Below, piece after piece: positions 1-285 of a stretch of DNA of 285 nucleotides. Positions within the stretch are counted from its first letter, which is position 1. Every line of letters starts with the position of its first letter. Under the pieces are notes generated by a model. The model saw nothing but the letters and a program-made list of their open reading frames with translations. It searched no databases and was not told the origin of the DNA. A program made the position numbers and the translations under genes. Origin of the DNA: a phage; sequence record AF419415.1, one strand, 5' to 3'.

Positions 1-285
1 ATGGCTATGTCTAACATGACTTACAACAACGTTTTCGACCACGCTTACGAAATGCTGAAAGAAAACATTCGTTATGATGACATCCGTGACACTGATGACT
101 TGCACGATGCTATTCACATGGCTGCCGATAATGCAGTTCCGCACTACTACGCTGACATCTTTAGCGTAATGGCAAGTGAGGGCATTGACCTTGAGTTCGA
201 AGACTCTGGTCTGGTGCCTGACACCAAGGACGTAATCCGCATCCTGCAAGCGCGTATCTATGAGCAATTAACGATTGACCTCTGG
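1..285 (+). CDS. ocr: Ocr (gene 0.3 protein), DNA-mimic anti-restriction protein inhibiting type I R-M enzymes; 3'-partial (codons 1-95 of an expected ~117, no stop in window)
   Basis: Seen in sequence: frame 1 is open across all 285 nt starting at ATG 1-3, while + frames 2 and 3 hit stops within the first 20 nt (TGA 16-18, TAA 12-14). The translation matches, from memory, the T7 gene 0.3 product. Composition is strongly acidic (14 Asp + 6 Glu against 2 Lys + 4 Arg in 95 residues), as expected for a DNA mimic. The ribosome-binding site would lie upstream of nt 1 and is not visible. In-frame ATGs at 7-9 and 16-18 have no Shine-Dalgarno-like sequence before them within the window, so nt 1 is the most plausible start. 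Confidence 0.93.

Follow-up and report, generated by a model that had tools for sequence, protein, structure and literature searches.

A 285-nucleotide phage sequence matching codons 1-95 of the T7 anti-restriction gene ocr (gene 0.3)

The 285 nucleotides analysed here (the window, meaning the whole stretch of DNA at its full length) raise the question of which gene they carry, how much of it, and whether the positions at which they depart from the known gene matter. A preliminary description had recognised the encoded polypeptide as Ocr, the anti-restriction protein of phage T7, and had proposed to compare it with T7 gene 0.3, with the Ocr crystal structure and with the Ocr protein family. 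We followed this identification through database comparison, and then considered the origin of the sequence, the single amino-acid difference that it encodes, and the end of the fragment.

Identity of the open frame

Frame +1 is open across the entire window (0 stops in 95 codons, 285 bases), with 1 to 15 stops in each of the other five frames. Its translation opens at the authentic ATG of T7 gene 0.3 and covers T7 Ocr residues 1-95; the frame was missing from the automatic ORF list because it overruns the end of the window. A megablast comparison against 50,697 phage records gave 178 matching records, 176 of them covering at least 80% of the window, and T7 gene 0.3 was the best match: 282 of the 285 bases are identical to T7 positions 925-1209 (98.9% over the full 285 bases, E = 1e-142), and the T7 feature lying under this match is annotated 'gene 0.3, inhibits EcoB and EcoK host restriction' (V01146). 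At the protein level, 94 of the 95 residues are identical to PDB chains 1S7Z_A and 2Y7C_D ('Gene 0.3 protein / Protein Ocr', E = 7e-60), residues 1-95 of the crystal-structure chain being matched with one substitution; the same fold as that of the solved Ocr (1S7Z) is expected because of this identity. The only Pfam family matched by the window at E <= 0.001 was PF08684, 'DNA mimic ocr' (197.7 bits against a gathering cut-off of 25, E = 4.2e-59), with window residues 3-95 aligned on profile positions 1-93 of 101. The match to Ocr is far beyond chance, and the nucleotide, structural and family comparisons all bear out the preliminary identification.

The composition of the translation is that of an acidic protein: 14 Asp and 6 Glu (20 residues) versus 6 Lys and Arg among the 95 residues, with a calculated pI of 4.18, and all the acidic residues of T7 Ocr 1-95 are retained. 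Compared with eleven relatives, the frame gave pN/pS values of 0.05-0.17 (Nei-Gojobori style count), the differences falling mostly at third codon positions; this low ratio indicates that the Ocr frame is under strong purifying selection. Two 31-aa ORFs in other frames lie inside this selected frame and were taken as chance. Rfam gave 0 matches at E <= 1 on both strands of the window, and neither a sigma-70-like promoter nor an intrinsic terminator was found within it.

We therefore conclude, with very little doubt, that the window comprises codons 1-95 of 117, the 5' 81%, of ocr of phage T7, or of a variant nearer to T7 than the other phage records searched. The 95-aa translation named in the preliminary description stands as Ocr residues 1-95; it is neither the whole protein, which has 117 codons in T7, nor the reference allele (C69T, C100T, M72V). 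The gene is already known, a known gene of a known phage, and the earlier view that it is a well-described anti-defence gene and no new system holds, since this is T7 gene 0.3. The window can be confidently labelled as ocr, the textbook anti-restriction DNA mimic, with little significance beyond annotation.

Differences from T7 and provenance of the sequence

Only three transitions, C69T, C100T and A214G, separate the window from T7, and they produce one amino-acid change (Table 1); the sequence is identical to no record searched. T69 is also present in distant relatives, namely phage AP10 and two IMG/VR contigs, the two contigs (found by exact scan) being only 90.5% identical to the window and carrying M72. 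An exact 33-mer scan did not find the T100 allele in IMG/VR, nor do the ten phage-collection relatives have it; a 35-mer holding G214 gave no exact match in IMG/VR, the JGI metagenomes or the GTDB genomes.

Table 1 Features of the 285-nucleotide window, in window coordinates.
Feature	Position	Strand	Detail	Basis
Codons 1-95 of ocr (T7 gene 0.3)	1..285	+	From ATG	BLASTN, PDB and Pfam matches
C69T	69..69	+	Synonymous, I23 ATC>ATT	Alignment to T7
C100T	100..100	+	Synonymous, L34 CTG>TTG	Alignment to T7
Codon F54	160..162	+	TTT, wild type; dimer-interface residue, site of PARIS-escape F54V	Translation; role from PMC9122126, PMC10802264
Codon 72	214..216	+	GTG (Val) versus ATG (Met) in T7; A214G = M72V	DNA and protein alignment
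Codon L82	244..246	+	CTG, wild type; dimer-interface residue, site of PARIS-escape L82R, L82P	Translation; role from PMC10802264 and Table S4B of PMC9122126

The matching phage records, among those listed or fetched, are mostly Teseptimavirus. One of the 178 bears the name of an Enterococcus phage, a host in which a T7-like ocr would not be expected; this record may be mislabelled or contaminated. Since all 178 similar records are phage and megablast found nothing similar to the window in PLSDB plasmids or complete E. coli genomes, the window, which consists of 285 bases and no flanks, would sit in the early region of a T7-like phage, as the preliminary description had placed it. In the T7 record (V01146), the first CDS to follow the early promoters A1-A3 is gene 0.3, which fits the earlier statement that Ocr is the first gene product expressed; in the relatives fetched, ocr adjoins gene 0.4. 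The phage phiA1122 carries its RNA polymerase gene directly after the ocr homologue, genes 0.4-0.7 being missing there.

The ocr sequence identifies the source as T7 itself or a derivative very close to it. Because the window is closest to laboratory T7, with G214 and T100 in no relative and T69 only in distant ones, the source should be either a laboratory derivative or mutagenised clone of T7, or a very close wild sibling. The DNA may descend from T7 kept in the laboratory, for instance an experimentally evolved line, or from ocr cloned or mutagenised as a construct, for instance in an error-prone PCR library; such an origin, as opposed to a wild T7-like phage, is possible but less likely than not, and the gene would be the same. 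The window is 98.9% identical to laboratory T7, much above the 95.8% for JB01, its nearest named natural isolate; it starts exactly at the ATG, and its three differences are all private transitions, which, with G214 and T100 found in no relative, look more like recent mutation than shared ancestry. Moreover, missense changes scattered in gene 0.3 are already on record for many mutant T7 clones in GenBank, such as F54L with G61C in T7_260S and D74G in T7_30S. On the other hand, two of the three changes are synonymous, as is also expected from natural drift under purifying selection, and the lack of anything similar in the plasmid and E. coli genome collections likewise speaks against a construct.

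Ocr activity, residue 72 and the end of the fragment

Full-length T7 Ocr is a highly acidic homodimer that resembles about 24 bp of bent B-form DNA in its shape and in the arrangement of its carboxylates. As the first protein to be made once the DNA has entered, it fills the DNA-binding groove of the type I restriction-modification enzymes EcoKI and EcoBI and of the BREX methyltransferase BrxX/PglX, so that the phage genome is neither restricted nor methylated. PARIS (AriA/AriB), an abortive-infection system, senses Ocr through a hydrophobic dimer-interface surface (F54, L82).

The activities that the preliminary description had attributed to Ocr agree with the published record. Inhibition of type I restriction is stated for EcoB and EcoK in the V01146 annotation, and Ocr was reported to prevent restriction and methylation by EcoKI alike (Rousset et al. 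2022, PMC9122126). For BREX, T7 needs Ocr to overcome the system, and Ocr binds BrxX (Isaev et al. 2020, PMC7261183), each dimer of Ocr tying up two BrxX/PglX monomers in competition with DNA (PMC11842806, PMC11341690). Triggering of PARIS (AriA/AriB) by Ocr was likewise described (PMC9122126, PMC10802264); the escape mutations F54V, L82R and L82P lie in the hydrophobic interface between the Ocr subunits, the surface that docks on AriA (PMC9122126, PMC10802264). Since F54 and L82 are wild type in the window, the encoded protein would be expected to inhibit type I restriction-modification and BREX and to trigger PARIS, barring an unexpected effect of M72V. Among other T7 records, the mutant clone T7_260S (MZ375284.1; locus L010, 301-654) encodes Ocr with F54L and G61C, F54 being a PARIS-escape residue.

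M72 is an otherwise conserved hydrophobic residue located just ahead of the long helix that bears the dimer-interface residue L82. Of the ten relatives retrieved from the phage collection, nine have Met at position 72 and one, Cedecea phage Yanou, has Ile; Met also stands there in the two related IMG/VR contigs and throughout the 14 aligned members of the 90% cluster of T7 Ocr. The position falls in a block of 36 residues (55-90) that is almost invariant among homologues. An exact look-up of about 15 billion proteins gave no entry for the 95-aa fragment, and none for the hypothetical full-length sequence of T7 Ocr carrying M72V; wild-type T7 Ocr was present on 248 contigs in the same look-up.

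The default reading is that M72V is probably a neutral polymorphism or an inconsequential mutation, since Val is a conservative replacement for Met and phage Yanou naturally has Ile here; the encoded protein should then fold and act like wild-type Ocr. A functionally meaningful M72V, weakening the hydrophobic core or the dimer interface and giving escape from PARIS or another Ocr-sensing defence with the type I block kept, or else partly disabling the protein, appears very unlikely. In its favour are the conservation of M72 in all but one of the homologues examined, within the almost invariant block, the absence of both V72 sequences from the exact look-up among 15 billion proteins, and the single hydrophobic substitutions elsewhere in Ocr (F54V, L82R, L82P) known to give PARIS escape. 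However, the substitution is conservative and Ile is tolerated in Yanou, Table S4B of PMC9122126 does not list M72V among its PARIS escapers, and the PARIS and BREX structure papers searched (including PMC11842806 and PMC11341690) say nothing of residue 71/72; the literature search found no paper naming 'Ocr' and 'M72V' together, and a single neutral polymorphism is the simpler reading. The more specific proposal, by analogy with F54V and L82R, that M72V would be a selected change altering the sensing of Ocr (by PARIS or another Ocr-triggered defence) or the stability of the dimer, with anti-restriction kept, has slighter prospects still. The unreported M72V allele is the only new item in the window, and it is probably without consequence.

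In T7, gene 0.3 runs from 925 to 1278 (117 codons and the stop), and the window stops at W95. Past codon 95 the T7 gene continues as GAAGACGCAGAAGAC... and ends with TAA at T7 1276-1278; the window therefore lacks the final 22 codons (EDAEDLLNEYLEEVEEYEEDEE), those of the acidic tail, as well as the stop. We infer that the allele is full-length beyond the window, and the ending exactly at W95 is probably a coincidence, just the window boundary. A W95-stop mutant (284G>A) was obtained as a PARIS escaper on an EcoKI+ host (Table S4B, PMC9122126), so truncation at this point occurs and is viable, but codon 95 (283-285) is the wild-type TGG in the window, no in-frame stop is present anywhere and the end is most simply a sampling boundary, which makes it exceedingly improbable that this ocr really ends near codon 95 as a C-terminally truncated gene reflected in the boundary. 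The W95-stop escaper itself suggests that an Ocr of 94 residues, devoid of the acidic tail, may keep its protection against EcoKI and yet evade PARIS. The length of the acidic tail varies among homologues: members of the T7 Ocr cluster have 117-123 aa. The phiA1122 homologue (NC_004777.1, 906-1328; locus L005, 301-723) has 140 aa versus 117 aa in T7.

Comparison with known Ocr proteins and other DNA mimics

Some of the records related to the window carry kinase annotations. In the T7 clone T7_30S (MZ375238.1, record positions 925-1620; locus L011, 301-885), the ocr ORF runs past residue 111 into a basic Arg/Lys-rich sequence and is annotated as 'protein kinase'; here a deletion fuses gene 0.3 to a downstream early gene, a fusion of the 0.3-0.7 type resembling one that Isaev et al. 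2020 (PMC7261183) mention, and the clone also has D74G. In public records, several intact Ocr homologues bear the label 'protein kinase' or 'receptor binding protein kinase' as well (JB01, locus L002, 301-651; IME390; CICC 80001; UniRef A0A2Z5HBI7), and these kinase labels look like annotation propagated from entries of 0.3-0.7 fusions.

The closest known protein is T7 Ocr (UniProt OCR_BPT7; 1S7Z, 2Y7C; PF08684), with which the window shares the start codon, 282 of 285 nucleotides, 94 of 95 amino acids, the acidic composition and residues F54 and L82; it differs from T7 Ocr in comprising residues 1-95 only, in two synonymous transitions and in M72V. The Ocr homologues of other Studiervirinae (JB01, ESh3, N30, phiA1122, EG1, 13a, AP10 and Yanou) have in common with the window the family, the architecture of the N-terminal 95 residues and 84.6-95.8% nucleotide identity, whereas all of them are more distant from it than T7 is, none has V72, and their acidic C-terminal tails vary in length. 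The phage and plasmid DNA mimics ArdA, T4 Arn and lambda Gam belong to families unrelated in sequence to the PF08684 of the window, but share with Ocr the principle of an acidic protein that imitates DNA and blocks DNA-binding defence enzymes (mentions in PMC9122126 and established knowledge).
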